The position numbers were made by a program, and so were the translations under genes. From Armatimonadota bacterium (GTDB lineage: Bacteria > Armatimonadota > JAAZEB01), in assembly GCA_012512265.1 (NCBI GenBank), contig JAAZEM010000131.1:1837-65836 (forward strand): DNA of 64,000 bases, in the 5' to 3' direction. The notes under the pieces are model-generated. The model had not been told where the DNA came from, did no database searches, and was given only the letters and a program-made list of their open reading frames with translations. Each line of letters starts with the position of its first letter. Within the stretch, counting starts at the first letter, position 1. Below, in pieces: positions 28,517-63,194 of the stretch.

Positions 28517-28539
28517 GCGCCGCATTCGCGCGCGGGGCC

Positions 28540-28565: not shown

Positions 28566-28581
28566 CTAGCCCCCTGCCATT

Positions 28582-42514: not shown

Positions 42515-42624
42515 GCAAAGACTCCATCCATGAAAAAAGCGGGGGCCCGGCTCTACCGGATTCGATATCGCCGCACCCCCGCGCACCTACAGCGCGATCA
42601 CTCGCGCCTTGAAGAAGGCGGTCG

Positions 42625-45096: not shown

Positions 45097-45126
45097 CCTC
45101 TGCTTCCCTCCAATCCAGTGGCATAC

Positions 45127-47714: not shown

Positions 47715-48644
47715 GTGACACGACCTCTTCATCCTGGGGAGGCACCTATCGTTGCGGGGCTCACCCTGGCGTTGGGAGAGCCGGCACGGGCAGCGATGTA
47801 TCAGCCCCTGCTACGCCGCGCGGTCGCGGCGGAGTGGGAGATGGCCTTTGCCCGGCTGGCCGCGGGCGGCGCGGGGGCGGTCGCCGGCATCGTGTCTCGC
47901 GAAGGCGAGGGCGATCTCCAGGAGGGGATGTTCGCTCTCCCGCGCCTCGTACACCGGACCGGCATCGAGCCCTATCGTGCCCTCTTCCTCGCGGCGCTCC
48001 ACGACCGGATCCTCGATCGCCAGGAGCACGGCGTGTGCCTCTTCATCGACTGGGATACCGGTGGGCTTGGCGTCTACGCTGTTGACTTCGCCGATGGGAA
48101 CGCGCGCATCCTCACCTCCTCATTTCAACCGGCGATCTGCACGGTGGCGCTGGGAGAGGCGGTCGCCAGGCACGTGCTCCTGCCGGCAGCCATGCCAGGC
48201 GGGGCCAGCCTCTGGAACGATCTGGAGAGCGAGGAGAGAGCGCGTCTCCGCGGGGCAGGGGAGGGCCTGCTGCGGCGGTGCTGGCTTGGAAGTCGGGAGC
48301 GGTTCGTGTGCGCGATCCCGCCGGTGCCGAGGGGCCGGGCTCTCGCCCGCGGCGCGGTACTCTCGATCACGCGCGAGGCGCTCTTCGCGCAGTGTCGGCT
48401 GGCCCTTGCGACGGCGGTTGACGCGCTGAGTGGTGCGCTGGAGACGGTGATGAGCCGCTGCGACACGCCGCTCCGGGTGGTGGTGTCGGGCGAGGCGGCC
48501 CGCTGGCACGAGTTTCAGAGCGCCGTGCGCCGGACATGCGGCGATCTTCCGGTGCATCTGGCGCCAAGGCCGGAGTCTTTCGCGGCGCGAGGCGCCGCCC
48601 TGGCGGTGGCAGAGGAGCACCTTGGAACGAAGGGAACCGTGTGA
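47715..48644 (+). CDS. degenerate Hsp70/actin-fold protein (predicted pseudo-ATPase), first gene of the Hsp70/vWA/tubulin-like cluster
   Basis: Hsp70 NBD motifs are recognisable but eroded. Phosphate-1 GIDLGT is replaced by AGLTLALG, phosphate-2 DLGGGTFD by DWDTGGLGV, and adenosine motif GGSTRIP by VSGEAARWH. The C-terminus ESFAARGAALAV corresponds to 'deaVA.GAA'. The start is uncertain (GTG 47715 or GTG 47625). The stop overlaps the next ATG (ATGA). Confidence 0.6.
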   Translation: MTRPLHPGEAPIVAGLTLALGEPARAAMYQPLLRRAVAAEWEMAFARLAAGGAGAVAGIVSREGEGDLQEGMFALPRLVHRTGIEPYRALFLAALHDRILDRQEHGVCLFIDWDTGGLGVYAVDFADGNARILTSSFQPAICTVALGEAVARHVLLPAAMPGGASLWNDLESEERARLRGAGEGLLRRCWLGSRERFVCAIPPVPRGRALARGAVLSITREALFAQCRLALATAVDALSGALETVMSRCDTPLRVVVSGEAARWHEFQSAVRRTCGDLPVHLAPRPESFAARGAALAVAEEHLGTKGTV

Positions 48645-50761
48645 TGGCAAACGCCATTTCCGTGGGGATCGATCTGGGTACCAGCACGTGCGAGGTCGCC
48701 TATTGGGACTCCGTAGCCCGGCGGATACGCAACGTCTCCTTCGGCGGTGAAGGCGGGCCCATTGTGCCCTCCGCGGTGTGGTTTGATCGCGCGCGAGGGC
48801 GCACGGTGGTTGGTGACCAGGCCTACGCGATGCGCGTGCCCAAACACCGGGAGGTCGTGCTCAACATCAAGCGCCAGATGGGCACCGACTACCGGTTCGC
48901 GCTGGGTGGGCGGGAGTACACGCCTGCCGAGATCTCGGGCGAGATCCTCAGGTACCTGAAGGCGGAGGCGGAGCGCTTTACCGATGGCGAGGTGAAGCAG
49001 GCGGTGATCACCGTGCCGGCCAAGTTTGACACGCTGGCCCGCGAGCACACCGAGGAAGCGGCGCGGATCGCCGGCCTGGAGACGCTGATGCTCCTGCCGG
49101 AGCCCGTGGCCGCGCTTATCGGCTATGAGAGCGTGGCCCAGGATCCCGAGCGCGAGTATGTCGCCATGGTCTACGACTTCGGCGGCGGCACCTTCGACTG
49201 CAGTGTTGTCCATGCCAGGGGCAGGCAGTATCGCGTTCTCTCTAAGGCGGGGGTACACCGCCTGGGCGGCGCCCAGATTGACGAGCGGATCGCCGATCAG
49301 TTGATCCGCCCCAAGGTGTTGCATGCGGGCTTCGACCTGGCCAGCGAGGAGGAGTGGGCGCTCAAGATCCGCGCGAAGATCCTCGAGGTTGCGGAGGCCG
49401 CCAAGAAAAGCCTCTCCGATGAAAGCCGGCGCTCCGTGGTCGCCGTGCTCCCCCATCTCGTGGCGCCGGGGCGGCCTCCTCAGACCGTGCGCGTGGAGAT
49501 CACCCAGGAGGATCTGCAGAAGACCATCGCTGACCTGTTGCGTGTGGCCAACGAGCAGATGGCGCTCGCCCTGGAGAACGCGGGAATCTCTCGCGCCGAG
49601 CTCGATATGGTCGTCCTTGTCGGTGGCTCGACGCGCCTGCCCGCGATTCGAGAGGCTGTTCGCCAGTTCATGGGCGAGAAGGCGTTCGACGGCAGGGATG
49701 GCGGGGTTCGCAAGGTGCTCGCCGATGCCAATCCGGATCTCGTCGTCTCGCGCGGCGCCGCGCGCGTGGCCACCTCCTATGACCTGCGCGACGAGCGAAT
49801 TGAGCTGGTCGATATCCTCCTCGACACTGTCTACCTGCGCGTGCCGGGTTCCCTCACTCAATTCAGGCCGCTCTTCGCTCGGGGCACCGAGATCGAGCAG
49901 GCGAAGCGCACGCTTCGGCTGCAGTGGCCCCGAGGCGACACCGTCGCCGTCGATCTCTATGAGGGCGAGAAGGACGGCGCCCCGGGAGCGAAGTACGTGG
50001 GCACCCTCAAGTTGGGTCCGGCCTCTGTGCCCAAAGGGACTCCCGTTGAGCTCACCATCCAGTACCGCACCGACCGCGCGCTCCCAGAGGTGACGGCGCG
50101 GGTGAGGAAGACGGGCACCCCCATCCGGGCCACGGTGGAGTACGAGCAGCATAGCGTCCAGGCATCGGGATCGGCACGGCTGCAGGTGACCCCGGAGCTG
50201 GACCTCGTCTTCTGCATCGACACCACGGGGAGCATGGTGCATGGCGACCACCTCGAGAAGCTGCGCCACTGCTGCACCCGCTTCGTCAACGCCCTTGCCG
50301 AGAGTGATCTGGATCTCCGCCTGGCGGCGATCAGCTTTGGCGACCGCGCCGGCGGCGAGCGCGAGACGGTCTACTCCTTCACCCCGGACCCGCGCCTCTT
50401 CATCACGCGCGTTGGAAGCCTGAACGAGAACGACGGGGGAGACGAGCGGGAATCGGCGCTCGATGCACTGGCCGTGGCGCTCCGGCTTCCCTTCCGCGAG
50501 GGAGACACCCGGCATCACATCGTGCTCGTTACCGACGCGCCCCCGCACCGGCCGGAGAAGGGCTCGCTAGAGCAACTGGTCTCGCAACTGGCTGCCCACA
50601 ACATTCGAGTCGATGTGGTCGGGCCGTTCTGCCAGGAGTATGACACCGTGGTCGCTGGCACGGGAGGGCGGCTCTACAACATCGACGACGAGCTGGATCA
50701 GCTGTTTGCCGATCTCGAGGAGAGTATCGGGCACGCGAGCAGCGGCACGGAAGGGGCATGA
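48644..50761 (+). CDS. Hsp70-family ATPase (NBD plus beta-sandwich substrate-binding-like domain) fused to a C-terminal von Willebrand factor A domain
   Basis: Canonical motifs GIDLGTSTCEVA, ITVPAKFD, LLPEPVAALIGY, VYDFGGGTFDCSVV, and VVLVGGSTRLPAIREAV. An SBD-beta-like segment reads VDLYEGEK...GTPVELTIQYRTD. The vWA domain carries the MIDAS motif LVFCIDTTGSM (DTTGS at 50219-50233). Confidence 0.85.
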   Translation: MANAISVGIDLGTSTCEVAYWDSVARRIRNVSFGGEGGPIVPSAVWFDRARGRTVVGDQAYAMRVPKHREVVLNIKRQMGTDYRFALGGREYTPAEISGEILRYLKAEAERFTDGEVKQAVITVPAKFDTLAREHTEEAARIAGLETLMLLPEPVAALIGYESVAQDPEREYVAMVYDFGGGTFDCSVVHARGRQYRVLSKAGVHRLGGAQIDERIADQLIRPKVLHAGFDLASEEEWALKIRAKILEVAEAAKKSLSDESRRSVVAVLPHLVAPGRPPQTVRVEITQEDLQKTIADLLRVANEQMALALENAGISRAELDMVVLVGGSTRLPAIREAVRQFMGEKAFDGRDGGVRKVLADANPDLVVSRGAARVATSYDLRDERIELVDILLDTVYLRVPGSLTQFRPLFARGTEIEQAKRTLRLQWPRGDTVAVDLYEGEKDGAPGAKYVGTLKLGPASVPKGTPVELTIQYRTDRALPEVTARVRKTGTPIRATVEYEQHSVQASGSARLQVTPELDLVFCIDTTGSMVHGDHLEKLRHCCTRFVNALAESDLDLRLAAISFGDRAGGERETVYSFTPDPRLFITRVGSLNENDGGDERESALDALAVALRLPFREGDTRHHIVLVTDAPPHRPEKGSLEQLVSQLAAHNIRVDVVGPFCQEYDTVVAGTGGRLYNIDDELDQLFADLEESIGHASSGTEGA

Positions 50762-50766
50762 CACCA

Positions 50767-52298
50767 TGGCACGGATTGCTGAGAGGCCGCCAATCGTTAT
50801 CGGCGTGGACCTGGGGAATGCCTCCTGCCGGATGGCGCCCTGGCGCAACGTGAACAGCCACTCGCCAACGCCCGATACGATGGGCTTTCGCTCCTGCCCG
50901 GCGGTGGTGGCGCGCGACCATGAGGAGGGCGGGTGGCTTGCCGGCGCCAGCGCCCTGGAGATCGCCTATCGGGATGGGGTGGAGCTGTTTGACCACCTGA
51001 AGGACGGCATCCTCCAGGAGCGCGGGGCGAACGCGCGGAAGACGGCTGTCCAGCGCCTGCTCTCCAAGCTCAAGTTTGATCTCCAGGCGGAGTGCGCCGC
51101 GCGCGTCATTGACGCCGTGCTTTCCGTTCCCTACTCGTACACGCTGAAGCAGCGCCGGGCGCTCCGCAACGCCTGCTCGCTGGCGGGTCTCCCCGTGGCC
51201 GGGCTGATCAACGAGCCGGAGGCGGCTGTTCTGGGGTATCGGATTGACGAGCAGATTGAGGAAGGCAGCGAGCGGATTCTCGTCTTCGATGCCGGGGCCA
51301 CGCGGTGCACCGCGAGCGTGGTCCGGCTGAGCAAGCAGGGGGCCTACATCGATATCGAGCTCCTGAGCGAGGCGCACGCAGTTACAGAGGAGGGAGAGCC
51401 GGTCGGCGGCGACAGGATCGACGCCCGGCTGCTCGAGATGTTCGAGAGGGGCCGGCTGCAGATCCCGCCACTGCCTTCGCCAGAGGCCCAGGCGGCCGGG
51501 GATCAGATGGACCCGGTGGAGTACGAGCGCTGGCTGCGGCAACAGCTCCGGCGTGTCCTGCGCGAGGCCCGGCACCAGTTGAGCGGCGAGACCTCCTTCG
51601 AGTTTTCGGTGCCCTGGGCCGAGGAGAGCCTCGGCCGGCTGACACGCGACCATCTGGAGCGATGGGCCAGCTTCGATACCGAGATCACCGCGGCGATCCA
51701 GATGGCGGTGCAGGGCGCGCGCGACCGCGATGCCCCGAACGGCCTCCGGAATGACCAGATAGACCGCGTCCTGATCACCGGTGGGCTCAACCGCTCGCCT
51801 TTGATCCGCCGGCTCGTGGATCACTTCCCCCATGTGGAGCCGTGCGAGGATGGGTTCGAGGAGTACGCGGTCGCCTATGGCGCGGCGCGGTGCGCGGCGA
51901 TCCTCACGGGCCGGTGCGAGGGAGTGGTCTTCCGCCCGCGCGAGACGCCCGCGTTTGGGATCCGCACCGGGATCGACACCTTCGACAAGGTGATCCCGGA
52001 AAACGCGCCGCCAGGGTTCAAGGCGAAGAAGGTCTACACCCTGCCCAACCGCTACGCCGACCGCATGGTGCTGGAGGTGTGCCAGGGCTTCTCCCGACGG
52101 TTCCAAGACGAGCTGTCGCTGGGCGCGAAGGAGCTCCCCCTCCAGTTCCCCGAGGGCGCCGGCAAGGGCACCTACCTCGAGCGTGAGATCCACGTCGAGA
52201 TGGATCTCGCCGATACCAGGCTCCTGGTCACGGTGACCGACCGCACCAAGGGGATTTCCCAGCCGGTGCCCGATAGGCTGGAGCTCGAGGTGAGGTGA
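50767..52298 (+). CDS. divergent Hsp70-like protein (NBD plus SBD-beta-like) with partly degenerate nucleotide-binding motifs
   Basis: VIGVDLGNASCRMA (phosphate 1, T to N), LSVPYSYT, LINEPEAAVLGY, VFDAGATRCTASVV (degenerate phosphate 2), VLITGGLNRSPLI. It starts 5 nt after the previous stop and follows GGAAGGGG. Confidence 0.8.
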
Positions 52299-52310
52299 AG
52301 GAGGAAGCCC

Positions 52311-52889
52311 ATGGAAGGCCGTCCGAGAACGGTGGAAGAGGTCGACGAGAGGCAGAGGACGCTGCGGGAGGAGTTTCGCCGGCTCAACGATGCGCTTGAA
52401 AGCAAGTTTGGAGAAGCGATCACGAAGCGTCAGATCCTGGATGCCGCGCAGGCGTGCGAGGTGCTCCGACAGTTAGCTCGGGAACTGAAGGTGCTGAGCG
52501 ATGAGAGTGACAGGATGCGGGAACCCGAGGCGAGGCAGAGGGCGCTCGAGAGGTTCGTCAGCGGCCGCATGGATGACAAGGTGGGTGCCATCCAGAGCGA
52601 GGAGATTGGCAAGCTCAAGGATGATCTCAACGCGATACAAGCGGAACTGGCCAATCTGAGGGAGCAGCTAGAGACTGGGGTCAACCATGCGCTTCAGAAG
52701 ATAGCGGATGCGCAAGGGAAGGTAGATGTGACCGATGGTCTCCTGAAGGAGGCCATCAGGCAGCGGGACGATCTTTCCCAGAAAATCGAGCGCCTCGAGA
52801 GGATTGCCAGGGATCTGGATGCTTGCGAAAGGATGGCGGAGGTCGCTGGGGCTGAGCCAGCCGGCGGCCAGTGGGGGGATCACGGGTAA
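52311..52889 (+). CDS. coiled-coil protein (hypothetical)
   Basis: AAGGAGGAAG RBS. The 192-aa sequence is rich in E/R/L/K/Q with a heptad-like character. I see no globular motif. Confidence 0.6.
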   Translation: MEGRPRTVEEVDERQRTLREEFRRLNDALESKFGEAITKRQILDAAQACEVLRQLARELKVLSDESDRMREPEARQRALERFVSGRMDDKVGAIQSEEIGKLKDDLNAIQAELANLREQLETGVNHALQKIADAQGKVDVTDGLLKEAIRQRDDLSQKIERLERIARDLDACERMAEVAGAEPAGGQWGDHG

Positions 52890-52953
52890 CCGCCCCGGAT
52901 GTGTGGCGCGGTTTGCTATCCCGGAACGCCAGGGAGAGAGGCTGGGCTCGAAG

Positions 52954-54495
52954 ATGAAGAACGACTGGGGCCGGGCGGACTGGAGTCGGGTATTCTATGT
53001 ATCGCTGGTGTTCGCGATCGTGCTTGTCCCTGCCGCGTTGATCCATGTTCTCTACCGCCACTGGGGAGTCCCTGCCGCGTTGATCCCGACGGTCTGGGAA
53101 GCCCCGTGGTTCGAGCACTTGGTGGTAGTCTTTGCGTTTATGTCAGTGGTCGTTGCCTGGATCAGCTCTCGGAAGGCCAGGGAGTCGCCGTTGAAACCTG
53201 AGCCCGCTCTGGAGTCGAGCCCGCGGGTAGAGCCCTGGCGGGCGGAGAGCCTGCAGGAAGAGTGGAATGGCTGGGAGCGAAAGCTCGACACCTACCGCTG
53301 GATCCTGGACGGGGATCTGCCCGCGCTGGATCCGGGAGAATTGAGCCAGGCGCAGGCTGCATTCAACAGCTTGCGGGAGGGGATCGAGCGCTTGCAGGAC
53401 CCGGGCGATTCCGAGCGGCCTCGTGCCAACGTCCCGGACCGCACCTGGGTCCGGAATAGCCTCGAGACGGGCATCAGTGCGATACTCGACCGGGAAGAGG
53501 AGAGGCAGCGCCTTCGCGCTCTCGTTGAGAAGACGGTGACGGAGTTCCGGGAGCAGGTGGAAACCCTGCGGGAAGAGGTGCGCGTGCTTCAGCGAGAGGC
53601 GGGCGTGCCGGCGGAAGAGGCAGAAGGCCCGGGCGAGTCTGACAGCGGGGCGGGCCACCTTGCCAGCTTGCAGGAGAAGATAGGAGAGCTCCAGCGGCGT
53701 GTTGAGGCGCTGGCGGGTGAGTCCGCCGATGAGACTTCGGGCGCAGGAGCAGACGTGCTCCAGACCATCGACGGCCGGCTGTCGCGGATTACCGATGCCC
53801 TGGAAGCGAGGGCGTACGAGATTTCAATCCGCGATTTTCACCGCCGGCACGAGGAGTTCACTAACCTTCGCCGCCGGCTTGCCGGGGAGGTGCTGCCGCT
53901 CCTGGAAACCGCTCCTGGGGACGAGGCGGCGCGGCATTGCCACCGCGCGCTCTCGGAGCTGCTGGAGCGCCTGGATGGCCGTCTGGCGGCTGCGAAAGAG
54001 GCGGTCCGCCACCGGGGCGAAACCCCGGGTGGAGGCGGAGAGCTGGAGCGGCGCATCGAGCGGCTGGAGACGCGCGCGCACCGGCTGAAGGATGGTGGTG
54101 ACGCCTGTCTGATGGAGCTGGCCGAGCCGCTGGTGCAGGAGCACCTGCGTCCCTTAGTCGAGATGATCATCCGCGATTTTCTCCGGCCGCTGCTGGAGGA
54201 GGCGACACCGGTGGAAGGAGAGACCGCCAGGAGTGCCCGCGCCACGTTGCTGGGCGAAGTGGTAACGCTCGCGCGTAGAGTCCTGTTGGAGAGCATCCAG
54301 TTGGAGGTGATCGACCCAAAGGCAGGCAGCAAGCTGGAGGAGGAGGCGCACGACGAGATAGAGGTACTCGCCCCGGAGGGAGACGCGAGCCCGAACACGG
54401 TGGCGGAGGTGGTCGCGCCGGGCTACCGCTGGGCGGGAGAGGTGATCCAAAGGGCGCGCGTGTGCTCCTATCGGGAGAGAATGGACAGGGCCTGA
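52954..54495 (+). CDS. membrane-anchored long coiled-coil protein with a GrpE-like C-terminal beta-domain
   Basis: Two N-terminal TM helices (VFYVSLVFAIVLVPAALIHVLY and LVVVFAFMSVVVAWISS), then about 350 aa of coiled coil. The C-terminus LEVIDPKAGSKLEEEAHDEIEV...NTVAEVVAPGYRWAGEVIQRARVCSY parallels the GrpE C-terminus (cf. E. coli VEVI...PLDPNVHQAIAMV...[23 protein letters not shown]). The start is uncertain (an ATG at 52804 is also in frame). Confidence 0.65.
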   Translation: MKNDWGRADWSRVFYVSLVFAIVLVPAALIHVLYRHWGVPAALIPTVWEAPWFEHLVVVFAFMSVVVAWISSRKARESPLKPEPALESSPRVEPWRAESLQEEWNGWERKLDTYRWILDGDLPALDPGELSQAQAAFNSLREGIERLQDPGDSERPRANVPDRTWVRNSLETGISAILDREEERQRLRALVEKTVTEFREQVETLREEVRVLQREAGVPAEEAEGPGESDSGAGHLASLQEKIGELQRRVEALAGESADETSGAGADVLQTIDGRLSRITDALEARAYEISIRDFHRRHEEFTNLRRRLAGEVLPLLETAPGDEAARHCHRALSELLERLDGRLAAAKEAVRHRGETPGGGGELERRIERLETRAHRLKDGGDACLMELAEPLVQEHLRPLVEMIIRDFLRPLLEEATPVEGETARSARATLLGEVVTLARRVLLESIQLEVIDPKAGSKLEEEAHDEIEVLAPEGDASPNTVAEVVAPGYRWAGEVIQRARVCSYRERMDRA

Positions 54496-55623
54496 ATGGC
54501 GGGCAACCGGAGCGCGCTTCTCTCGGAATCAGAGCTCCGCGAGCTGCGCGCGCTGCTCTATGCGACCCGGTCGAAGAGCATCGACACCTTGCAGCGGCAG
54601 GTGAGCCAGATCGGGATCCGCCTGGCGGATCTCCTCGTCAAGGTGGCTGCCGGGCTCGAGGCCGGCCTTCAGGAGACGCGCGGGCACCTGAAGGTGGCGG
54701 TCGAGACGATGATGGAGCAGGCGGAGGAGCTGGAGCAGATCAAGGCGTGGATCGAGGCGGCCTGCCTGACACCGGCCTCCCTCGCCAGCTCCCCCCGAGG
54801 TGGAAAAGACGCTGCCGAGGTCGCCCGCGTGGCGGAGAAGCTCTCCGAGACGGAGACGCGCCTGGCCGCCCTCGAAAGCGAGGTGGCGGATGTGAGCCAC
54901 CAGCTGCGGACCGCGGGCGAGCGTGTCGAGACGCCCGACCGGCCTGCGGGGGACGAGGCGCTGTTGGAGCGCCTGGAGGAGCACATCTCTCTTCTCGCCC
55001 TGGCGGGGGCTCGCCGGGTGGCGCGCGACCGCCAGGCGCGCATCCGGGCGCTCGAGCGTGTGGCCGAAGCGGTCGAGCAGCGGTTCATCCCGCGCGCCGT
55101 GGCCTTCCGCCGGCAGCTGAGCGGCGATGTGACGAGCTATGACGGCTGCCGGGCTCTGGAAGAGCGGGCGCGCGAGGCACGCCGCCTGGGAGAGGTGGCG
55201 GCGACGGAAGCCATGCGGTTGAGCGCCGCGCCCGACTCGGGGTCGGAGCGATGGGAGAGCGTTCGCGAGCTCCTGGCGCTGGGCGGAGTGCCCGATGGCG
55301 AGGACGACCTCGATTTTGAGATCCGGCGCGTGCTTAGCGAGTGGTTCCTCCCGCTCATCGATCTCACCGTCTCCTATCGGGAGACGGGGGCTCCAGAGGG
55401 AGAGGCTGCCTTCCAGGCGCTCCTTGGCGATCTGATGGAGGCGGGCTGGCGGGCGGACCTCGAAGCCATCGTGCCTGCACAGGGGGCGGCGTTCGATCCA
55501 GCGCTCCATGAGGCGGTGGGTTCAACCCCCGCTCGAGACGCGCGCGTGGCGCAGGTTGAGGCGCCTGGTTACTGCTGCGGCGGCGGAATCATGCGCCTGG
55601 CCAGAGTGCGTGTGCGCGAGTGA
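54496..55623 (+). CDS. coiled-coil protein with a GrpE-like C-terminal beta-domain (putative nucleotide-exchange factor)
   Basis: The ATG abuts the preceding TGA. A long helical region ends in LEAIVPAQGAAFDPALHEAVGSTPARDARVAQVEAPGYCCGGGIMRLARVRV, matching the GrpE pattern 'G..FDP..HeAv......V..v...GY...g.i.R.A.V.V'. Confidence 0.7.
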   Translation: MAGNRSALLSESELRELRALLYATRSKSIDTLQRQVSQIGIRLADLLVKVAAGLEAGLQETRGHLKVAVETMMEQAEELEQIKAWIEAACLTPASLASSPRGGKDAAEVARVAEKLSETETRLAALESEVADVSHQLRTAGERVETPDRPAGDEALLERLEEHISLLALAGARRVARDRQARIRALERVAEAVEQRFIPRAVAFRRQLSGDVTSYDGCRALEERAREARRLGEVAATEAMRLSAAPDSGSERWESVRELLALGGVPDGEDDLDFEIRRVLSEWFLPLIDLTVSYRETGAPEGEAAFQALLGDLMEAGWRADLEAIVPAQGAAFDPALHEAVGSTPARDARVAQVEAPGYCCGGGIMRLARVRVRE

Positions 55624-55644
55624 CAGGATGTGATGGGAGAAGTG

Positions 55645-57639
55645 ATGGCGGATAGTCGTTCGGCGAGCGTGGTGGAGGAGTTCCTGCCAGCGCCCTATCC
55701 GGCGCCTCTCTTCGTGGCGTGGGAGCAGCACCTCGATTTCGGGGAAGTTCGCCGGCCAGCGAGGAAGCGGTTGACATTCAAGGTCTCCAACATCGGCGGG
55801 GATGGTAACCTGGATGTGACGCTCCGACCGAACATCCCGGACCAGCAGTGGTTCCAGGTTCGCCCGACTCATCTCGTGATTCCGGCGGGCGAGGATCGCA
55901 TCGTTGACGTGGAGATCGATACGAGCCTGGAATCGTGCCCCCTCGGCCGGCACGACCTCGACATCCAGGTAGAGGCGCCCGGATCGATGGAGCCGGAGAT
56001 CCCGCGCATTCGGGTGTCGGTGGAGGTGCTCCGGGAGATTGTGCTGGTGTGCGACCCGGGCGAGATCGACCTGGGCGAAGTGCCCCTGGGCGAGAGCCGC
56101 ACCGTGACGGTGAGCATCCAGCGCAGTGATGAACGCGAGGTTTGCCTGAACGAGCGCCTGATCCAGCTGGTGGATGAAACCGGCAAGCCCCGGCCGGCGT
56201 GGGCCGACATTGAATTGGGAGCGCCGGGCCGGAAGCAGGAAGTCACGCTCACCTTCCACACGGCCAACCGGGCGATGCGCGAGTACCGCTGTGAACTGCG
56301 CCTGTGTGATACCGTCCCTGAGGTGAACCAGGTGGCGGTGCCCATCCACGTTTCCGTCAGCCCGCCGCCGCAGCTGGAGGTAGAGTGGGCGATCCCGCCG
56401 ATGCCGAACTTCACCGGCGACACCCAGGACGCGCAGCTCGCGGTGGGCAACTCCGGGGGCGGCGTCCTCCGCGGCCGAATCGCTGGCGACCAGTACTGGT
56501 TGCGTGTCCTGAATGGCGAGTTCAGCGTGGCGGCCGGCCAGATGCACACGGCGACGGTCCGAATCGGTGACGCCCGGTTGCGGGTTGGCACGTATCACGG
56601 TCATCTTGAAATCTTCTCGAATGACGGCGGGCGTAGCCGCGTGCTGCGCGTGCCAATCGAGCTGGAGGTGGTGGACCGGAGCCGCTGCCCCGTGGAGATC
56701 TACTTCGAGCCGGATCTGGGCGCGCTTCACCGCCGCCAGACGGCGGAGCGCGCGCTCACGATCACTAACCTGATGGCCCAGCCGTTTGAGGGGAGACTGA
56801 TCTCCGGGAGCCCCGACTGGATCCGGGTGAAGGGGGGCATGGAGGAGGTGCGCCTTGGCCCGGGCGAGTCCAGGCAACTCCTCCTGGAGGTCGACCCGCG
56901 GCGCCTCCCCGCGAAGGACGGCCCCACCAGGCACAAGGCGGCGTTGCAGCTGGTCGATTCCACGGGCAAGGAACGCTGGAAAAAGACCGCGACTTTGGAG
57001 CTCGTGCCCGCACCGTCCTCGCCGCTCGTGCGGTTGCTTCTGGCCTTCTGGGCGTTGGTGCTCCTCGCGGGCCTGGCATGGGGCGGAAAGCAGGTGTATG
57101 ACGGCCCGGTGCAAAGGATCCTCTCCGCGCGCACCCGGGCCGCGACGGTGGCCACGCCGGCGCCCGCACCGGCGGCACCGCCGGCTCAGCAGCAGGCGGC
57201 CACGGCCAGACCGGCCCCGGCTCAGCCGGCTCCTGAGTCGCAGAGCGCGCCTGAGGCCACGGAGAAACCACGCAGGGTAGCGCCGGATTCGGCCCGGGCG
57301 CGCTCTCTCTACGCGGAGGGGACCGCGCACTTCCAGCGGGGAGAGTGGCGCCTGGCTGCCGACCTCTTTGACCAGGCTGCGGCGGTGGATCCCGCGCCCG
57401 CTGGGTCGCTTTTGATGGTGGGCCGCAGCCGCTACCACCTCGGCGAGTGGGATGCCGCGGCGAAGGCGCTGGAGGAGGCGACGCGGCTCAAGCCCGATTC
57501 GGCGGCGGCCCACTTGTGGCTGGGCCGGGTCTATCTGGAGCAGGGCAACCGGGAAGCGGCCTCGCGTGAGTTTGAGGCCGCGCTGAAGGCAGATCCGATG
57601 AATAGGCAGGCACGCGATGAGCTTCAGAAGCTTCGGTAA
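55645..57639 (+). CDS. membrane protein with 4-5 N-terminal Ig-like (ASH/PapD-like) repeats, one TM helix, a Pro/Ala-rich linker and C-terminal TPR repeats
   Basis: Repeats take the form LDFGEV...LTFKVSNIGGDG.L, IDLGEVPLGESRTVTVSI, LAVGNSGGGVLRG and so on. The TM helix is LVRLLLAFWALVLLAGLAW, and the TPR region reads ARSLYAEGTAHFQRGEWRLAADLFDQAAAVDP...LGRVYLEQGNREAASREFEAALKADP. ATG 55645 follows GGGAG, with in-frame alternatives at 55630 and 55633. Confidence 0.7.
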   Translation: MADSRSASVVEEFLPAPYPAPLFVAWEQHLDFGEVRRPARKRLTFKVSNIGGDGNLDVTLRPNIPDQQWFQVRPTHLVIPAGEDRIVDVEIDTSLESCPLGRHDLDIQVEAPGSMEPEIPRIRVSVEVLREIVLVCDPGEIDLGEVPLGESRTVTVSIQRSDEREVCLNERLIQLVDETGKPRPAWADIELGAPGRKQEVTLTFHTANRAMREYRCELRLCDTVPEVNQVAVPIHVSVSPPPQLEVEWAIPPMPNFTGDTQDAQLAVGNSGGGVLRGRIAGDQYWLRVLNGEFSVAAGQMHTATVRIGDARLRVGTYHGHLEIFSNDGGRSRVLRVPIELEVVDRSRCPVEIYFEPDLGALHRRQTAERALTITNLMAQPFEGRLISGSPDWIRVKGGMEEVRLGPGESRQLLLEVDPRRLPAKDGPTRHKAALQLVDSTGKERWKKTATLELVPAPSSPLVRLLLAFWALVLLAGLAWGGKQVYDGPVQRILSARTRAATVATPAPAPAAPPAQQQAATARPAPAQPAPESQSAPEATEKPRRVAPDSARARSLYAEGTAHFQRGEWRLAADLFDQAAAVDPAPAGSLLMVGRSRYHLGEWDAAAKALEEATRLKPDSAAAHLWLGRVYLEQGNREAASREFEAALKADPMNRQARDELQKLR

Positions 57640-58882
57640 CCGTGGGTGGAGGCGGCTCCTTCTTGCCACGCTTGTTGGCGCGGCCAGCCTGGGCGCGTGC
57701 CCGAGGGTTTGGGCAGAGGCAGGCGAGGGCGTCGAGACTGTGCAGGAGCAGGCGGGGCAGATCGCGCAGAAGATCGCGCCGTACAAGGGGAAGTTTGTCG
57801 TCTTCGTCCTGGACGTCTCTGGGAGCATGACGAACCAGGGGCGGCTGCAGGCGAGCAACGAGGCGCTGGCCACGATCGTGCGCAATGGCACGCGGGTGGG
57901 CGACCGCGTCGCGATCTTCTCCTTCGACGTCAGCCCGGAGCTGCTGCTTAAGGAGACGGTCATCCAGAAGGAGAGCGACAAGAAGATCGTGATCGACCGG
58001 ATCCCGACGGTGAGCAGCAACACGGTGGGCTCGAACATCCGGTGGGCGCACCACGAGGCGCTCAAGCTGCTGGAGCCGTCGGAGTGTCCTTACCAGGTGT
58101 GCGTCCTGGTGAGCGACAACCTGCACGACCCGCCGGGTGAAACGGACCGCTTCTATCCGGATTACCTGAACTACTACATTCCCGGCACGATGGAGGCGCC
58201 CTCCACCCCGCAGAGTAACGACTACGCTCGCCTGCGCGAGAAGTTTCGCGGCGGCACCCGGCTCACCTTCGGGATTGGCGTCAACATCTCCGAGACGGGC
58301 GCCGTGCAGGAGCTGCCGCCACTGAAGAAGACTCCGGCCTGGGTGTGGCTGGTGGCCGCGGCGGCGGTTGTCGCGCTGGCTGGCGCCGGCTGGGTGGGAG
58401 CAAGCGCGTGGCGACGCGCCGCAGAGGCACGCCAGATCGCCAACAGTCCGATGAACGTTGTGATTCGCAACGTCACCCCGGATGGCACGGCCAGCCCCTT
58501 CAGCGCGGAGACGCATCTGGTGCTGCAGCCGAACGAGTCGTTCACCATCGGAGGCGCGCCTTTCGGTATCGGGCAGGTGGTTTCCCTCCCCGGCGCCATG
58601 ATGAAGGAACCGGTGGCGCGAGTCCACCGGCGCGGCCTTAGCTTCAGCCTCGAGGCGCTGCCCGGCCAGGAGACGGTGGCGGTTTACGTGGACGGCATCG
58701 AGGCCGTGCCTGGCGGAGATGCGATCCCTATCCGCTTGGGGCAGACGATCAGCGTGCGCTATCGGGTGATGGCTGGGATCGAGAAGAGCGTGGATCTTCT
58801 CTTCGCAGACCCGCGGGCGGCCGAAGAGCAGGCGGCAACCGAGGAAGTAGTCTTCGACGAGAGTCACCAGTCTCCCTATTGA
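57617..58882 (+). CDS. lipoprotein-like vWA domain protein with a TM helix and a C-terminal FHA-like domain
   Basis: Signal peptide with a possible lipobox (LGAC). vWA MIDAS FVVFVLDVSGSM (DVSGS at 57812-57826). TM helix AWVWLVAAAAVVALAGAGWVGA. The C-terminal segment FTIGGAPFG...VARVHRRGLSFSLE...VYVDG..V.....IRLGQTISV is FHA-like (tentative). It overlaps the previous gene by 23 nt. Confidence 0.75.
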   Translation: MSFRSFGNRGWRRLLLATLVGAASLGACPRVWAEAGEGVETVQEQAGQIAQKIAPYKGKFVVFVLDVSGSMTNQGRLQASNEALATIVRNGTRVGDRVAIFSFDVSPELLLKETVIQKESDKKIVIDRIPTVSSNTVGSNIRWAHHEALKLLEPSECPYQVCVLVSDNLHDPPGETDRFYPDYLNYYIPGTMEAPSTPQSNDYARLREKFRGGTRLTFGIGVNISETGAVQELPPLKKTPAWVWLVAAAAVVALAGAGWVGASAWRRAAEARQIANSPMNVVIRNVTPDGTASPFSAETHLVLQPNESFTIGGAPFGIGQVVSLPGAMMKEPVARVHRRGLSFSLEALPGQETVAVYVDGIEAVPGGDAIPIRLGQTISVRYRVMAGIEKSVDLLFADPRAAEEQAATEEVVFDESHQSPY

Positions 58883-58913
58883 GGGGGAGCGGCATAGCAG
58901 GGGGGAGCAGACG

Positions 58914-61900
58914 ATGGCCGTGGAGTTGGATGCCGTAGGCGTATCCCGAAGCATCATCATTGGCTGCGGGGGCACCGGACACAGGATCATCCTGGAGACG
59001 CGCAAGCGCCTGGTGGACAAGTACGGGTCGCTGAGCAAGATCCCGATAGTGCAGTTCCTACAGCTCGATACGACACCACTCAAGGAGGAAGTGCGCTACG
59101 CGAAGGAGGTCAACCTGACCCCCAACGAGTACGTCTTCATGCAGGTGCAGAACATCGCCAAGTACCGGCGTGGCCTTGAGAATGAGCCCCACCTCTACCC
59201 GCATCTGGCGTCCTGGGTGCCGCGCTCGATCCTCACGACGAACGTCGACCAGGGCGCGGGCCAGGTGCGTGCGCGGGGGCGCTTCGCCTTCTTTGAAAAC
59301 TACCCTACGATCCGCGAGCGCCTCTACGCGGCGATGAACCGCGTCACCAGCGACCAGGCGTATCGCGAGGCCACGTCGAACGGCATCCGGGTAAGCGAAG
59401 GCGGGATCTCGGTCTACATCCTCACCTCGCTGATGGGGGGCACGGGGAGCGGCATCTTCCTGGACCTGGCCTACCTGGCCAAGAATGAGTTGAGCCAGGC
59501 CGCGGGCGCGAAGACGATCGACACGATTGGCATCCTGTTGCTGCCCCCGGTGGGCGGCGACCTGGTGGGCGTCTACTTTGCGAACGCCTATGCCTCGCTG
59601 ATGGAGCTCAACCACTTCAACAACCCCGCCACCGAGTTCGTGGCCCAATACCAGCCGGGCATGCCCGAGTTGCGCGATCCGGACGACCCCTTCACCTTCT
59701 GCTACCTGATGGACTCGCGCAACGAAGAGGGAGACGTGATCGGAGAGGACAAGCTGATCCAGATGATCGGCCACTACCTCTTCCTCGATCTCACGCACGA
59801 GTTCGCGAGCAAGAAGCGCGAGAACCGCGACAACCACAAGCAGTGGCTGCGCCGCGATGAGTTCGACTGCCCCACCAAGTACCTTAGCTTCGGCCTCTCG
59901 GCGCTCTGCTTCCCCAAGGACCAGGTGCTTCACGTCTGCGCCAATCGGCTGGCAAAGGAGCTCGTCTCGGGGTGGATGGATCCCGCGGCCGTCTTCGATG
60001 ATCGCGAGCTTCACGAGGAGGCCATCAACCGCATGGCCCAGGCCAACTGGGACTGCGATCGCGTGCGGGCCGGACTGGCGGTAGAGGGCCAGAGCCAGCA
60101 TGGGAGGAGCGCGACCGATGCCGTAGGCGAGATGGTGCGCCGCGCTGAAGCCACCGCCAAACAGGCGATGAACGAGAGCGCGATTCGCGCCCTGGAGAGG
60201 CTGATCCAGCAGGATCTCCCCCCCTGGATCTCCGCCGGCGACGAGGCCAATCCGGACGTGCGCCAGCGCAGGGGGCTGGGCATCTACCCGGAAGAGATCC
60301 GCAAGGGGCTTGAACGGCGCATCGAGCACATGAGCGCGTGGCTGGTGGAGCTGGTGACGGAGCTGGTGAACGACCCGAAGTACCGCCACGAAGGCTGCCG
60401 CCGCATGCTGGCCTGCCTGGAGCGGATTGCGACCCAATCTCGCGACCGGTTGATCCGCGACAGCACCGAGCTGAAGGCGCGGATGGACGCGCTGAATGGT
60501 CAGATCCAGAAGATGCTGAGCCAGTCGCGTGGCGAGATCCGGAAGGCGATGGAATCCGCCGCCAACGGCAGCCGGCGAAAAGCCGGCCGCGGCGCGACCA
60601 CCAATCGCGGCACGGCCGAGGCGGCGATCTCCAGCTTCTGCCGGGCAGTGGCTCAGCACGCGCAGGACAGCGTGCAGGCGTTCGTCTGCGACGCCGCCCA
60701 CCGCTTCTACACCGAGATGCTCGCCTGCCTGGCCGAGCGTAATCGCGATCTGAGGCGCTACGAGGAGCATGTGGGCGGGCTGCGCGAGCGCTTCCGTGCC
60801 GAGGAGATGCGCTTCCTGGAATCCTCCCCGGCCGTCAACGGTGAGATCCTCTACACCGGCGGAGATGAGGACGCGGATGAAGCGATCAACCGCTATTACC
60901 AGCATGTGACCGCGACAGAGAGACGCCAGATAGACGACCGCGTCCAGGCGGAGCTGGGCATCACCTCCATGGGCCTCTACGGCTACTTCCTGGCCGAGGG
61001 CGCCGGCTCTATCGACACGATTGCAGGAACTATCCTGCGGCACACGACGGCGGCGTTCAAAGACGACATTGAGGCGGTCGAAGTGCTCAATCTCTTCTTC
61101 GAAAGGTACCCGGACGACCGCGCCGCCGAGGAGCAGATGAAGCGCCTCAACCGCCTCTGCTCGCCATTCGTCCACGCGAAAGCGGGCGGGATGGCCGGCT
61201 TCACCGACGACCCGCAGATGCGCCAGCGCAACATCGGCATCCCCAACGCCGAGGAGCCGAAGACATCGGCGGAGCGGCGCTTCCGGGCGATGGTCACCAA
61301 AGCCGCGTCGGTGACCGACCCGCGCACCTGGGTGACGGTGGCCTCGCGCAGTGAGGCGCTCTTCCTCCATGAGCGTTCCGGCTTTCCCCTGCGGCTCATG
61401 GAGGACGCGTTGCGTCGGTGCGAAAGCCACTACGAACACACGCGCAAGCGCCGGAAAGAGCCAGTGCACGCCCGCGTGGATTTCCAACAGTGGGAGAGTC
61501 TCACGCCGGCGCCGCCACACCTGAAGGCGGAAGCGTGGAAGATCTTCTTCATCGCGGCGGCTTCCGGCGTGCTCACGTGCCGGCCGGTGGAGGTGCAGAC
61601 CCAGCGCGGCCAGGAGGAGCGCTTCAGCTACGAGATCAGCTATTTCGATGACCAGGGCGTGCAGCATACCGAGGTGGTGGCCGACCGCCTCCCGCCCTTC
61701 GATGCCCTCCGCTTCGATGGGAGAGACTATCCGAATGGCGTGATGCAGCTCCTCCTGAAGCTGTGTCACCCCGAGGGATTGACCGATCTGGCCCGGCGCA
61801 TCCAGCGCAAGCAGGAGGAGACTGTGGCCAAAGAAGGGGTGGCGGCGATCCGGGAGCGCCTCCTCGATCTCGTCAACAACCGGCTGTCGCCTCAAGCCGA

Positions 61901-62345
61901 GTTCACGCCGCACGCGCGCGAGGTGGTGAGTGGCTACCTCCGCTCGCTTCAGAGCGCGCCAGGAGCGGGCGCGCCCGCGACTCCCCCGGCGCCGGCACCC
62001 GCGGGCGCTACAGGCGACCGGCTCGCGAAACTGCGCGGCCTCCTCGAGAAGCGCCTGATGACCGCTTCGGACTACGCCGCGAAGCTGAAGGAGATGCGCG
62101 GCGAGGGCGTGCTCACATCGGATGAGTGCCGGGCGAGCCTGAATGAACTCCGCGACGCCGGTCTCCTGACGCCGGCGGAGTACGACGCAGCTTGCCAGGC
62201 GCTCGGCCTCGAAACGGCGGAGAGCCCGGCGGAAGAGAACTCGATTGAGGCCCGCCTGATGAAGCTGAAGAGCCTCTTCGAGAAGGGATTGATCACCCAG
62301 GAGGATTACGACGCGAAGCGAACCGCGATTCTGGCGGAAATTTGA
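58914..62345 (+). CDS. giant tubulin/FtsZ-like GTPase (Tubulin_2-type) with a long helical region and C-terminal SHOCT-like repeats
   Basis: N-terminal T1-like IIIGCGGTGHRI. Tubulin signature LTSLMGGTGSGIFLDLAYL (MGGTGSG at 59433-59453). GAGQVRARGRFAFF. Three C-terminal repeats of the SHOCT type at about 62010-62342 (LAKLRGLLEKRLMTASDYAAKL, LNELRDAGLLTPAEYDAA, LMKLKSLFEKGLITQEDYDAKRTAIL). GGGGGGAG RBS. Confidence 0.8.
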   Translation: MAVELDAVGVSRSIIIGCGGTGHRIILETRKRLVDKYGSLSKIPIVQFLQLDTTPLKEEVRYAKEVNLTPNEYVFMQVQNIAKYRRGLENEPHLYPHLASWVPRSILTTNVDQGAGQVRARGRFAFFENYPTIRERLYAAMNRVTSDQAYREATSNGIRVSEGGISVYILTSLMGGTGSGIFLDLAYLAKNELSQAAGAKTIDTIGILLLPPVGGDLVGVYFANAYASLMELNHFNNPATEFVAQYQPGMPELRDPDDPFTFCYLMDSRNEEGDVIGEDKLIQMIGHYLFLDLTHEFASKKRENRDNHKQWLRRDEFDCPTKYLSFGLSALCFPKDQVLHVCANRLAKELVSGWMDPAAVFDDRELHEEAINRMAQANWDCDRVRAGLAVEGQSQHGRSATDAVGEMVRRAEATAKQAMNESAIRALERLIQQDLPPWISAGDEANPDVRQRRGLGIYPEEIRKGLERRIEHMSAWLVELVTELVNDPKYRHEGCRRMLACLERIATQSRDRLIRDSTELKARMDALNGQIQKMLSQSRGEIRKAMESAANGSRRKAGRGATTNRGTAEAAISSFCRAVAQHAQDSVQAFVCDAAHRFYTEMLACLAERNRDLRRYEEHVGGLRERFRAEEMRFLESSPAVNGEILYTGGDEDADEAINRYYQHVTATERRQIDDRVQAELGITSMGLYGYFLAEGAGSIDTIAGTILRHTTAAFKDDIEAVEVLNLFFERYPDDRAAEEQMKRLNRLCSPFVHAKAGGMAGFTDDPQMRQRNIGIPNAEEPKTSAERRFRAMVTKAASVTDPRTWVTVASRSEALFLHERSGFPLRLMEDALRRCESHYEHTRKRRKEPVHARVDFQQWESLTPAPPHLKAEAWKIFFIAAASGVLTCRPVEVQTQRGQEERFSYEISYFDDQGVQHTEVVADRLPPFDALRFDGRDYPNGVMQLLLKLCHPEGLTDLARRIQRKQEETVAKEGVAAIRERLLDLVNNRLSPQAEFTPHAREVVSGYLRSLQSAPGAGAPATPPAPAPAGATGDRLAKLRGLLEKRLMTASDYAAKLKEMRGEGVLTSDECRASLNELRDAGLLTPAEYDAACQALGLETAESPAEENSIEARLMKLKSLFEKGLITQEDYDAKRTAILAEI

Positions 62346-62387
62346 GACCGTGCCACGTTTGGTTGCTGGTGAGTGGAGGCCGGTGCA

Positions 62388-63194
62388 GTGAGTGAGTCGG
62401 ACCGGCTGAGGCGGCTTCGCAAGCTGCGGGAGGCGCTCGATGCGCCGCTCGTGCCGCGCGGCATGTCGCGCGCCTCGGTCGCTCACTATCCGACCGTGCC
62501 GCCCCGGTACACCTATCCGGGTCCGGTGGTACCGGGCACGCGCGCGGAGCTCGCCGCGGCGCCGAAGGGCTCGCGCCCGCTCCGGTGGCTCGCGGCCGCG
62601 CTCTCGCCACTCGCCGCTCTGGAGCGGTGGCACCTGCAGGCAGCCACGGTCGCGCTGGCGATCCTAGGCGCGCTGAACGCCTACTGGTTTCAGTGGGGCC
62701 TGGAAAAGGCGGCGATCACCATCATCGCCACGGCGGCGCTGCCGGCGCTACTCAGCGGCCTCTGCGACCTCCTTTTCCGGCTTACCGTCATTCCGGGGAT
62801 TCGCCTGCACGTGGCGCTGCTTCAGTGGGCGCGCGAGCGCCATCGCGCGCTCGTGATTGTGAGAGCCTGGGCCGACACCCCTCTCCGGGGGCGCTGGAAA
62901 CGGGCGGTGCAGGTTCAGTTCGCCTCGGGGGCGATCCCGGCGCGGACGCTCGACGTGGTGACGGACCTCTACGACGACAACTCGAAGCTGGATATCGCCC
63001 TCCTGGTGGAGGCGCCGGCACTCCCTTTGGACGACCTCCTTGTCTGGGTGCGCGTGCCGGATGGCCGGCTGGCTGGGATGGAGGCGAGCATCCGCCGGTT
63101 TCGAGAGGAGCGGTGCGCGCGCTGCCTGGGCGAGGAGACAGACTGCGCCCTCTGCGGCGGCACCTACCGGGTGCCAGAGGCGCAATTCCTGTGA
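62388..63194 (+). CDS. membrane protein with a C-terminal CxxC...CxxC zinc-ribbon (hypothetical), last gene of the cluster
   Basis: GTG 62388 lies 8 nt after GGAGG (alternative GTG at 62373). TM helices ATVALAILGALNAYWF and ITIIATAALPALLSGLCDLLF. The C-terminus reads RCARCLGEETDCALCGGTYRVP. Confidence 0.55.
   Translation: MSESDRLRRLRKLREALDAPLVPRGMSRASVAHYPTVPPRYTYPGPVVPGTRAELAAAPKGSRPLRWLAAALSPLAALERWHLQAATVALAILGALNAYWFQWGLEKAAITIIATAALPALLSGLCDLLFRLTVIPGIRLHVALLQWARERHRALVIVRAWADTPLRGRWKRAVQVQFASGAIPARTLDVVTDLYDDNSKLDIALLVEAPALPLDDLLVWVRVPDGRLAGMEASIRRFREERCARCLGEETDCALCGGTYRVPEAQFL

Follow-up and report, generated by a model that had tools for sequence, protein, structure and literature searches.

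Hsp70 chaperones are thought to need J-domain proteins for coupling ATP hydrolysis to client capture. Whether an Hsp70 cycle can be driven without a J-domain is the question raised by a locus of an uncultured Armatimonadota bacterium, present in a stretch of 64,000 nucleotides (contig JAAZEM010000131.1) that is referred to here as the window. An earlier note had described three tandem open reading frames (ORFs) of this locus, ORF1 to ORF3, as Hsp70 paralogs with graded loss of ATP-binding motifs and no J-domain partner, and had suggested a hetero-oligomeric or scaffolded assembly rather than a general folding chaperone. These three genes make up only the 5′ third of an operon that comprises ten genes, is membrane associated, and closes with a vWA protein and a Tubulin_2 protein. 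On balance, and with modest confidence, the trio is read here as the ATPase module of a self-contained, J-independent Hsp70/GrpE machine that forms an add-on to a membrane-spanning vWA and Tubulin_2 system.

Catalytic residues and domains of the three Hsp70-type genes

The coordinates of ORF1 to ORF3 and the nine motifs quoted for them in the earlier note were all present in the translations. ORF2, which carries the motifs GIDLGTS, DFGGGTFD, and LVGGSTRLP, matched the Pfam HSP70 family (PF00012) with 222.6 bits (E value, 1e-65; cutoff, 20.6), and its best PDB sequence match was DnaK (2v7y; E value, 1.7e-59). ORF3, sharing 25% identity with ORF2 and carrying GVDLGNAS, DAGATRCT, and ITGGLNRSP, scored 122.7 bits against the same family (E value, 1.8e-35), again with DnaK as the best PDB match (E value, 3e-23). 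Both proteins fell far below the NCBIfam cutoffs for DnaK, HscA, and HscC; against the DnaK equivalogs NF001413 and TIGR02350, ORF2 reached 237 of 648 bits and 234 of 823 bits, respectively, and ORF3 reached 104 bits against the cutoff of 648.

To map the catalytic positions, ORF2, ORF3, and their orthologues were aligned to Escherichia coli DnaK, the sequence of which was entered by hand, with its numbering checked both against the PDB alignment and at D8, K70, E171, D194, T199, and D201. In this numbering, ORF2 retains D8, K70, E171, D194, T199, and D201, together with the GGG loop and the GGxTR adenosine motif (its own catalytic positions are D10, K76, E153, D178, T183, and D185), and the full set was identified in ORF2 only. 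ORF3 retains D8, K70, E171, and D194 and is altered at six positions (T11N, T12A, G197A, G198T, T199R, and D201T). The ORF3 orthologue in L002, a contig of an Armatimonadota metagenome-assembled genome (MAG; JAAZEB010000392), shares 63% identity and has an equally degenerate phosphate-2 loop (NAGASQVT), indicating that the state of ORF3 is stable and not the product of recent decay. Complete ORF2 and degenerate ORF3 states were likewise found in orthologues at 63 to 66% identity.

Neither protein carries the α-helical lid of DnaK. In ORF2, an Asp-terminated linker (IELVD) connects the nucleotide-binding domain (NBD) to the β-subdomain of the substrate-binding domain (SBD-β), which runs straight into a C-terminal vWA domain recognized by three Pfam vWA models (E values, 7e-9 to 3e-6) and holding a motif, DTTGS, that resembles a metal ion-dependent adhesion site (MIDAS). 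ORF3 ends after SBD-β, and its linker, VVFRP, is noncanonical.

For ORF1 (motifs AGLTLALG, DWDTGGLGV, and VSGEAARWH), no match was identified in Pfam, NCBIfam, PADLOC, or PDB sequences, even at an E value of 10, and only ∼5 relatives were found among 1.8 billion representative proteins. That ORF1 is a real gene follows from its codon-position GC values (0.77, 0.55, and 0.80), a coding pattern like that of neighboring genes; from its GTG start at 47715, which was used by gene callers on near-identical contigs (P0001, 309 amino acids) and agrees with the N terminus of its orthologue; and from orthologues at 35 to 36% identity (36% in L002), which immediately precede the ORF2 orthologues on two further contigs (L002 and L003).

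Using hhalign, a thin ORF1 alignment compared with ORF2 alone gave no significant result, and significance was reached only after both alignments were widened. The ORF1 family then aligned with the Hsp70 NBD across ∼210 columns, from connect-1 to connect-2, with E values of 3.8e-5 to 6.7e-5 and probabilities of 64 to 71%. The real pair scored 43.1, compared with 19.9 and 15.8 for reversed alignments and ≤20.3 for 30 column shuffles. In the resulting register, E85-P86 of ORF1 corresponds to DnaK E171-P172, D112-W-D-T-G-G-L-G to D194-L-G-G-G-T-F-D, and S258-G259 to G341-G342. An AlphaFold2 model of ORF1 was of low confidence (pLDDT, 50; pTM, 0.51); the best 50 PDB matches returned for it by Foldseek were all Hsp70 NBDs (E values, 2e-8 to 6e-7; TM-scores, 0.32 to 0.42), and the order of secondary structures in model residues 105 to 303 fits subdomain IIA with a IIB-like insertion. 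The two lines of evidence are not fully independent, as the 3Di+AA scoring of Foldseek also uses sequence.

These results bear on the alternative that ORF1 has no kinship with Hsp70 and is instead an adaptor or leader protein specific to the lineage, with a coincidental resemblance in its motifs, which would leave two tandem Hsp70 paralogs rather than three. The empty database searches, the very small family, the nonsignificant first comparison with ORF2, the pLDDT of the model, and the TM-scores of 0.32 to 0.42 would all fit such an origin. It appears quite improbable, however, given a family-versus-family alignment that holds connect-1, phosphate-2, adenosine, and connect-2 in correct register at a score of 43.1, against ≤20.3 for the reversed and shuffled controls, the uniform set of 50 Foldseek matches, and the fit of the model to subdomain IIA with its insertion.

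ORF1 is most plausibly placed, by profile alignment and model, as a reduced Hsp70 NBD remnant with neither catalytic residues nor an SBD. When its N-terminal AGLTL was aligned by eye with IGIDL, the equivalent of D8 was a Thr. Only E171 and D194 could be matched among the catalytic positions, and both vary in L003. The lobe IB segment is short in ORF1, and in the L002 orthologue (L002:6752-7867) a Pro-rich, low-complexity insert of ∼80 residues (a weak match to Pfam FH1) lies exactly at the Hsp70 lobe IB position; this part of the fold appears dispensable in the ORF1 family. A further contig, L001 (ERZ2647901 NODE_8483), carries the same locus at low metagenome coverage (0.65). In its ORF1 and ORF2, identical stretches alternate with garbled ones, as would arise from frameshift errors, and the homologue P0004 (46% identity) is therefore probably an assembly artifact rather than a divergent relative; P0004/L001 was excluded from the structure alignment.

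Taken together, the graded loss proposed earlier was borne out. The DnaK alignment left the full catalytic set, like the textbook Hsp70 motifs, with the middle paralog, so that catalytic residues are not retained in all three proteins: ORF2 is complete, ORF3 is without the phosphate-2 residues, and ORF1 is what probably remains of an NBD, having neither the catalytic residues nor an SBD. The count of three Hsp70 paralogs is unambiguous for ORF2 and ORF3 and, for ORF1, is reached through remote profile and fold evidence and not through ordinary sequence similarity.

J-domain search and the GrpE-like pair

No Pfam DnaJ match was identified among the ten ORFs of the operon, and the HPD tripeptide is found in none of them. 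A hidden Markov model (HMM) of the J-domain, made from eight sequences entered by hand, was run with filters off against all six-frame ORFs of ≥40 amino acids from the window, L001, and L002 (a 21.5-kb syntenic locus); no J-domain was found, the best E value being 2. At relaxed Pfam thresholds, no hidden J-like, FHA, or other domain was identified in ORF4, the C terminus of ORF8, ORF10, or the helical region of ORF9. The claim that a J-domain is missing from the cluster and its flanks thus held in these scans, the custom HMM covering all six frames of the 64 kb.

A published list (PMC4022485) gives the DnaK residues that earlier work connected with the binding or stimulation by DnaJ and with allostery between domains. 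Most of these positions are replaced in ORF2 (D148T, K155E, R167M, N170P, T173V, E217R, and Q378V, with D211 deleted), and R151, D393, and D481 are retained. The ORF2 orthologue in L002 has the same or similar substitutions, with Q at the E217 position. The replacement of J-contact residues, together with a locus that holds no J-domain, argues for J-independent operation.

Two genes downstream of the trio supply GrpE-like proteins. ORF5 scored 27.9 bits and ORF6 31.4 bits against Pfam GrpE (cutoff, 25.8), and ORF6 also matched the Thermus thermophilus GrpE structure 3a6m (E value, 2.3e-5). In both, the match is confined to the C-terminal β-domain of GrpE, and the cutoffs of the NCBIfam GrpE equivalog were not reached. 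The two proteins are paralogous, and each has a long helical region; ORF5 has two transmembrane-like segments (residues 15 to 33 and 53 to 71), and its L002 orthologue is 31% identical. With two GrpE-like genes following the trio, the module has dedicated co-chaperones. Between ORF3 and this pair lies ORF4, for which only weak coiled-coil-type matches were identified in Pfam and PADLOC. An ORF of L002 (11751-12338) was considered as its equivalent and rejected, given a low-complexity translation, apparently in the wrong frame, with no match in the window.

A competing explanation is a normal, J-dependent Hsp70 system in which the J partner, a housekeeping DnaJ or a specialized one, is encoded elsewhere and the degenerate paralogs are accessory. 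The view of this genome is limited to 64 kb, the genes for canonical DnaK, DnaJ, and GrpE often lie scattered (PMC13580251), and ORF2 keeps R151, D393, D481, and a partly hydrophobic linker, all of which this explanation would accommodate. The seven substituted positions D148, K155, R167, N170, T173, E217, and Q378, which are similarly altered in L002, are difficult to reconcile with it, as is the finding that neither the window nor L001 nor the 21.5 kb of L002 contains a J-domain. Evidence from related systems cuts both ways: their repeat protein is sometimes fused to DnaJ, but it carries either DnaJ or TPR (PMC7159879), and the repeat protein of the present operon, ORF7, has TPR. A J-dependent system is therefore regarded as rather unlikely, and J-independent operation of ORF2 is retained as the favored reading.

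The ten-gene operon and its relatives

The ten ORFs lie on the plus strand at 47.6 to 63.2 kb of the window (operon span, 47715 to 63194) and are separated by −23 to +64 nt (Table 1). ORF1 and ORF2 overlap by 1 nt at their stop and start, ORF3 and ORF4 are 12 nt apart, and no gap separates ORF5 from ORF6.

Table 1. Genes of the operon, with positions in the window and predicted products
Gene	Position	Strand	Length (aa)	Features
ORF1	47715..48644	+	309	Probable reduced Hsp70-NBD-like pseudo-ATPase; no SBD, lobe IB mostly missing, catalytic residues lost
ORF2	48644..50761	+	705	Hsp70 NBD with intact catalytic set, IELVD linker, SBD-β, C-terminal vWA
ORF3	50766..52298	+	510	Divergent Hsp70; NBD and SBD-β, no lid, degenerate phosphate-2 loop DAGATRCT, noncanonical linker VVFRP
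ORF4	52311..52889	+	192	Charged helical, coiled-coil-type protein
ORF5	52954..54495	+	513	Membrane-anchored GrpE-like; two N-terminal hydrophobic helices, long helical region, GrpE C-terminal β-domain
ORF6	54496..55623	+	375	Soluble GrpE-like; helical region, GrpE C-terminal β-domain
ORF7	55630..57639	+	669	Ig-like (ASH/HYDIN-type) repeats, one transmembrane helix, Pro/Ala-rich linker, TPR repeats
ORF8	57617..58882	+	421	Signal-peptide-like N terminus, vWA (MIDAS DVSGS), transmembrane helix, C-terminal β-rich domain without family
ORF9	58914..62345	+	1143	Tubulin_2 (FtsZ-like) GTPase domain with GGTGSG, large helical region, C-terminal SHOCT repeats
ORF10	62373..63194	+	273	Hydrophobic; C-terminal CxxC...CxxC, no family; last operon gene

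Among the distal genes, ORF7 matched the Pfam HYDIN_VesB_CFA65-like_Ig model (E value, 1e-7) and TPR models (E values down to 8e-16), with a transmembrane segment at residues 466 to 484; its orthologue in L002 is 63% identical. ORF8 matched Pfam VWA_2 (E value, 2e-9), contains the MIDAS motif DVSGS, and has a transmembrane segment at residues 243 to 261. Its C-terminal domain (58400-58882, residues ∼262 to 421, presumably cytoplasmic) looked FHA-like by eye, a suggestion that found no support, as no Pfam match was obtained at an E value of 5. ORF9 aligned with positions 1 to 355 of the 356 in Pfam Tubulin_2 (PF13809; E value, 3.1e-73), with GGTGSG at residue 175, and its C terminus matched Pfam SHOCT (E value, 2e-11). 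No match was identified in Pfam or NCBIfam for ORF10, which has Cys pairs at 248 and 258. An ORF10-like gene follows the tubulin gene of L002 (21081-21524); its cysteines (CPHC...CPRC) lie near the N-terminal region, in contrast to the C-terminal CxxC...CxxC of ORF10, and the conserved part of the two proteins consists of an N-terminal RLRRLxExREAL segment and a WLAAxLSPLA segment.

Seen against the whole operon, the earlier interpretation stood in its account of ATPase loss, the lack of a J-domain, and a role other than that of a general folding chaperone, for which the present results offer further support. The hetero-oligomeric or scaffolded assembly that it had suggested is kept as a candidate arrangement. 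It had missed the vWA fusion of ORF2, the two GrpE-like genes, and the ten-gene operon with its Tubulin_2 protein.

In L002, the order ORF1 to ORF3 followed by ORF5 to ORF9 is kept at 31 to 66% protein identity, after which an ORF10-like gene starts, and the locus lies downstream of the same oxidoreductase gene as in the window. When genomes and metagenomes were scanned with ORF3, the results were a single MAG with synteny, a set of near-identical contigs, and an unrelated locus, L011, which by its gene order and ORF sizes looks like a canonical dnaK operon. Homologue searches with ORF1 and ORF3 yielded only a handful of relatives, and no relatives of ORF2 or ORF9 were found in the viral contigs scanned. 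Upstream of the ORF1 orthologue, L002 carries a gene (L002:3507-6755) for a 1,082-amino-acid TPR-CHAT (caspase-like protease) protein that ends 4 nt inside the start of that orthologue and appears to belong to the operon in the L002 genome.

Full-length relatives of ORF9 are common in Armatimonadota at ∼30% identity, and the neighborhoods of five of them (L004 to L008) were inspected. A vWA-domain gene was located near the Tubulin_2 relative in four (L004:4645-13288, L005:3971-13357, L006:6129-13453, and L008:6828-13318; ORF9 identity, 25 to 33%). In L004 to L006, this gene is ORF8-like (34 to 40% identity) and adjoins the Tubulin_2 gene. Two or three unannotated genes accompany the vWA-Tubulin_2 pairs of L004, L005, L006, and L008; a Ser/Thr kinase gene lies near the tubulin gene in L004 and L008 and at a greater distance in L005, and a PQQ β-propeller gene was found in L006. 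None of the five loci has an Hsp70 gene. The vWA-tubulin pair thus appears to be a conserved core and the Hsp70/GrpE block an exchangeable module, the partnership of Hsp70/GrpE with Tubulin_2 having been seen only in this narrow Armatimonadota clade.

The operon is followed directly by a gene for an unrelated secreted protein. The upstream genes are of housekeeping type (IspDF, PIN-TRAM, RadA-like, ClpC-like, an aminotransferase, and a GFO-type oxidoreductase) and place the operon in a chromosomal rather than a mobile-element context; those for IspDF, the PIN-TRAM, RadA-like, and ClpC-like proteins, and the aminotransferase lie on the minus strand at 38437 to 45999, where IspD and IspF are fused, the ClpC-like protein is of the AAA+ type, and the aminotransferase is of class IV. 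Scans for tRNAs, Rfam families, and promoters or terminators revealed nothing informative. The G+C content of the window is ∼66%. A strong AT skew (+0.21) at 28001 to 30000 coincides with a minus-strand gene (28582-30408) and is probably a composition effect of that gene, the product of which resembles, by its sequence features, a DsbD-type thiol:disulfide interchange membrane protein (signal peptide, many transmembrane helices, and a C-terminal WCxxC thioredoxin-like motif).

ClpC and the other housekeeping genes in the flanks, and the fact that multiple DnaK-related genes per genome are common (PMC13580251), could be taken to mean that ORF2 and its neighbors are stress-chaperone duplicates, extra dnaK and grpE genes, lying beside an unrelated tubulin/vWA cluster, with ORF1 and ORF3 decaying and functionless. 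Such an origin seems extremely unlikely. ORF2 and ORF3 score far below the cutoffs for DnaK, HscA, and HscC, both are lidless, and ORF2 is fused to a vWA domain; the close spacing extends through all ten genes; and the whole order is kept in L002 with intact frames and the same degenerate motifs at 31 to 66% protein identity, which points to purifying selection rather than decay.

Proposed mechanism and comparison with known systems

If the trio is the ATPase module of a J-independent machine, ORF2 would be its sole hydrolyzing engine and would need no J-domain. The nucleotide state of ORF2 would be reset at the membrane by ORF5 and ORF6, which may pair as a heterodimer resembling the GrpE dimer. 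ORF3 and ORF1 may act as nonhydrolyzing partners or regulators of ORF2 through NBD-NBD contacts, as Hsp110 or Ssz1 do with their Hsp70s. ATP-driven changes in ORF2 would then control what its vWA domain and β-domain hold, the client being most plausibly the tubulin-like ORF9 or the cytoplasmic tail of ORF8. Control of such a client would let signals sensed by the vWA and TPR domains, which are predicted to be periplasmic, gate polymer assembly close to the membrane.

A bolder form of this proposal, held only tentatively, is that an Hsp70, and not a MoxR AAA+ protein or a DO-GTPase, may serve as the nucleotide switch of a membrane-spanning system of sensory or immune type. This switch would be lidless, vWA-fused, and J-free; its cycle would be set by a membrane-tethered GrpE-like heterodimer and two NBD-binding pseudo-Hsp70s, and it would gate tubulin-like polymerization upon periplasmic vWA/TPR sensing. 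More speculatively, and by analogy with what has been predicted for related tubulin/vWA and HSP70/GrpE neighborhoods, the system could have a role in thresholded conflict or defense or in an envelope response. The CHAT protease gene of L002 lends weak support to a conflict or defense role.

Several points weigh against the J-independent machine and its extensions. A J-protein gene may lie in another part of this genome, beyond the 64 kb. The assignment of ORF1 depends on an hhalign probability of 64 to 71% and a model with a pLDDT of 50, and the membrane topology of ORF7 and ORF8 was derived from hydrophobicity alone. Contacts between the operon products are putative, and both the client named above and the system's output are guesses. 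No counterpart of the TPR-CHAT gene was found in the window by tblastn. PADLOC-DB v2 gave no meaningful defense match: its models returned nothing for the Hsp70, vWA, or tubulin genes and only weak coiled-coil-type matches in ORF4 and ORF5; together with the housekeeping flanks, this leaves the conflict-system role as one assigned by analogy only.

Many bacteria carry unexplained DnaK derivatives without lids or substrate-binding domains, and the operon offers a compact, genetically linked test case, in which an apparently competent Hsp70, with its J-contact residues replaced and a vWA domain in the place of the lid, is paired with two progressively degenerate paralogs and two GrpE-like factors. 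Besides the question of a J-free Hsp70 cycle, it opens those of whether bacterial pseudo-Hsp70s are Hsp110- or Ssz1-like partners and of how, in predicted conflict systems, cytoskeleton-like assemblies come to be gated by chaperone modules. The family is rare, its known hosts are uncultured Armatimonadota, and all functional statements made here are inferences.

Compared with the canonical DnaK-DnaJ-GrpE system, the operon has in common the catalytic residues of the ORF2 NBD, an Asp-terminated linker, and SBD-β, as well as the GrpE C-terminal β-domain that follows long helices in ORF5 and ORF6. It differs in having no J-domain gene, no lid in ORF2 or ORF3, and replaced J-contact and allosteric residues; the canonical system has no counterpart of the vWA fusion, ORF5 and ORF6 are two to three times the length of GrpE, one of them being membrane anchored, and scores lie far under the NCBIfam cutoffs for DnaK, HscA, and GrpE.

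In a 2026 review (PMC13580251), many "DnaK derivates" of bacteria, YegD among them, are described in which the lid or the SBD is missing; an Hsp110-like co-chaperone role is proposed there for those that contain an NBD, with the stress that none has been tested. Like these and like Hsp110 (Sse1) and Ssz1, ORF1 and ORF3 are, or in the case of ORF1 probably are, Hsp70-derived proteins with altered linkers, a reduced or absent SBD, and impaired canonical cycling, located beside an active Hsp70. Unlike Hsp110, which retains a large SBD and the binding of ATP, ORF1 is without catalytic residues, most phosphate-binding residues, and lobe IB. Given the dedicated GrpE-like factors, a nucleotide exchange factor role for ORF1 or ORF3 is not required.

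The MoxR-vWA pairs of ternary systems also join an ATP-driven chaperone to a MIDAS-containing vWA protein, plausibly gating a protein-protein interaction. Here the ATPase is an Hsp70 and not an AAA+ MoxR, it is fused to the vWA domain in one polypeptide, and there is no VMAP or iSTAND third component. Within the Tubulin_2/FtsZ-like group (PF13809; Makarova and Koonin 2010, as cited in PMC9871819), ORF9 is a typical member in matching the full model and in having a long C-terminal extension not found in FtsZ, but the usual partners in Armatimonadota are a vWA protein and a kinase or β-propeller, not Hsp70/GrpE.

The operon also resembles the GAP1-N2-type DO-GTPase systems described by Kaur, Burroughs, Iyer, and Aravind (eLife 2020; PMC7159879), predicted conflict systems in which a TRAFAC P-loop GTPase, often with N-terminal zinc ribbons, is linked to genes that fall into nonoverlapping themes. 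One theme consists of tubulin and vWA proteins; another consists of HSP70 and GrpE, at times accompanied by an additional HSP70 that has no peptide-binding domain, and by an FNIII-repeat protein joined to either DnaJ or TPR. Both come mainly from Actinobacteria and Firmicutes (PMC7159879). Shared with the present operon are Hsp70 and GrpE, an extra Hsp70 that is probably NBD only, a membrane protein in which β-sandwich repeats are joined to TPR rather than DnaJ and which may correspond to the published repeat protein, a tubulin-family protein whose C-terminal region is large and helical, vWA proteins that carry transmembrane helices, and a membrane-proximal, multicomponent operon. Differences lie in the combination of the tubulin and HSP70 themes, the direct fusion of Hsp70 to vWA, the presence of three Hsp70-type and two GrpE-like genes, the ORF7 repeats, which by Pfam are Ig repeats of the ASH/HYDIN type and not FNIII, and the Armatimonadota host.

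The common accessory themes (HSP70 with GrpE, an NBD-only HSP70, a β-sandwich-repeat/TPR protein, tubulin, and a vWA protein with a predicted extracytoplasmic vWA domain) would fit a bona fide DO-GTPase/GAP1-N2 conflict system with its GTPase and GAP1 genes located outside the operon. The P-loop motif [GA]xxxxGK[ST], however, occurs in none of the operon ORFs, and no GTPase match was obtained with Pfam in the operon or its neighbors or among the L002 proteins scanned. No recognizable GAP1 was found in the operon with libraries that hold no GAP1 profile, and a GAP1 with its three domains (GAP1-N2, GAP1-M, and GAP1-C) would not fit into the unassigned ORF4 or ORF10. Taken with the nonoverlapping themes and the phyla in which they mainly occur, such a system with its GTPase elsewhere appears very unlikely. 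Membership of the operon in the DO-GTPase/GAP1 family was rejected because it has no P-loop and so lacks the GTPase that defines the family, though it resembles the accessory logic of these systems. On the best reading, the operon resembles the HSP70-GrpE and tubulin-vWA themes, which it combines without the DO-GTPase.

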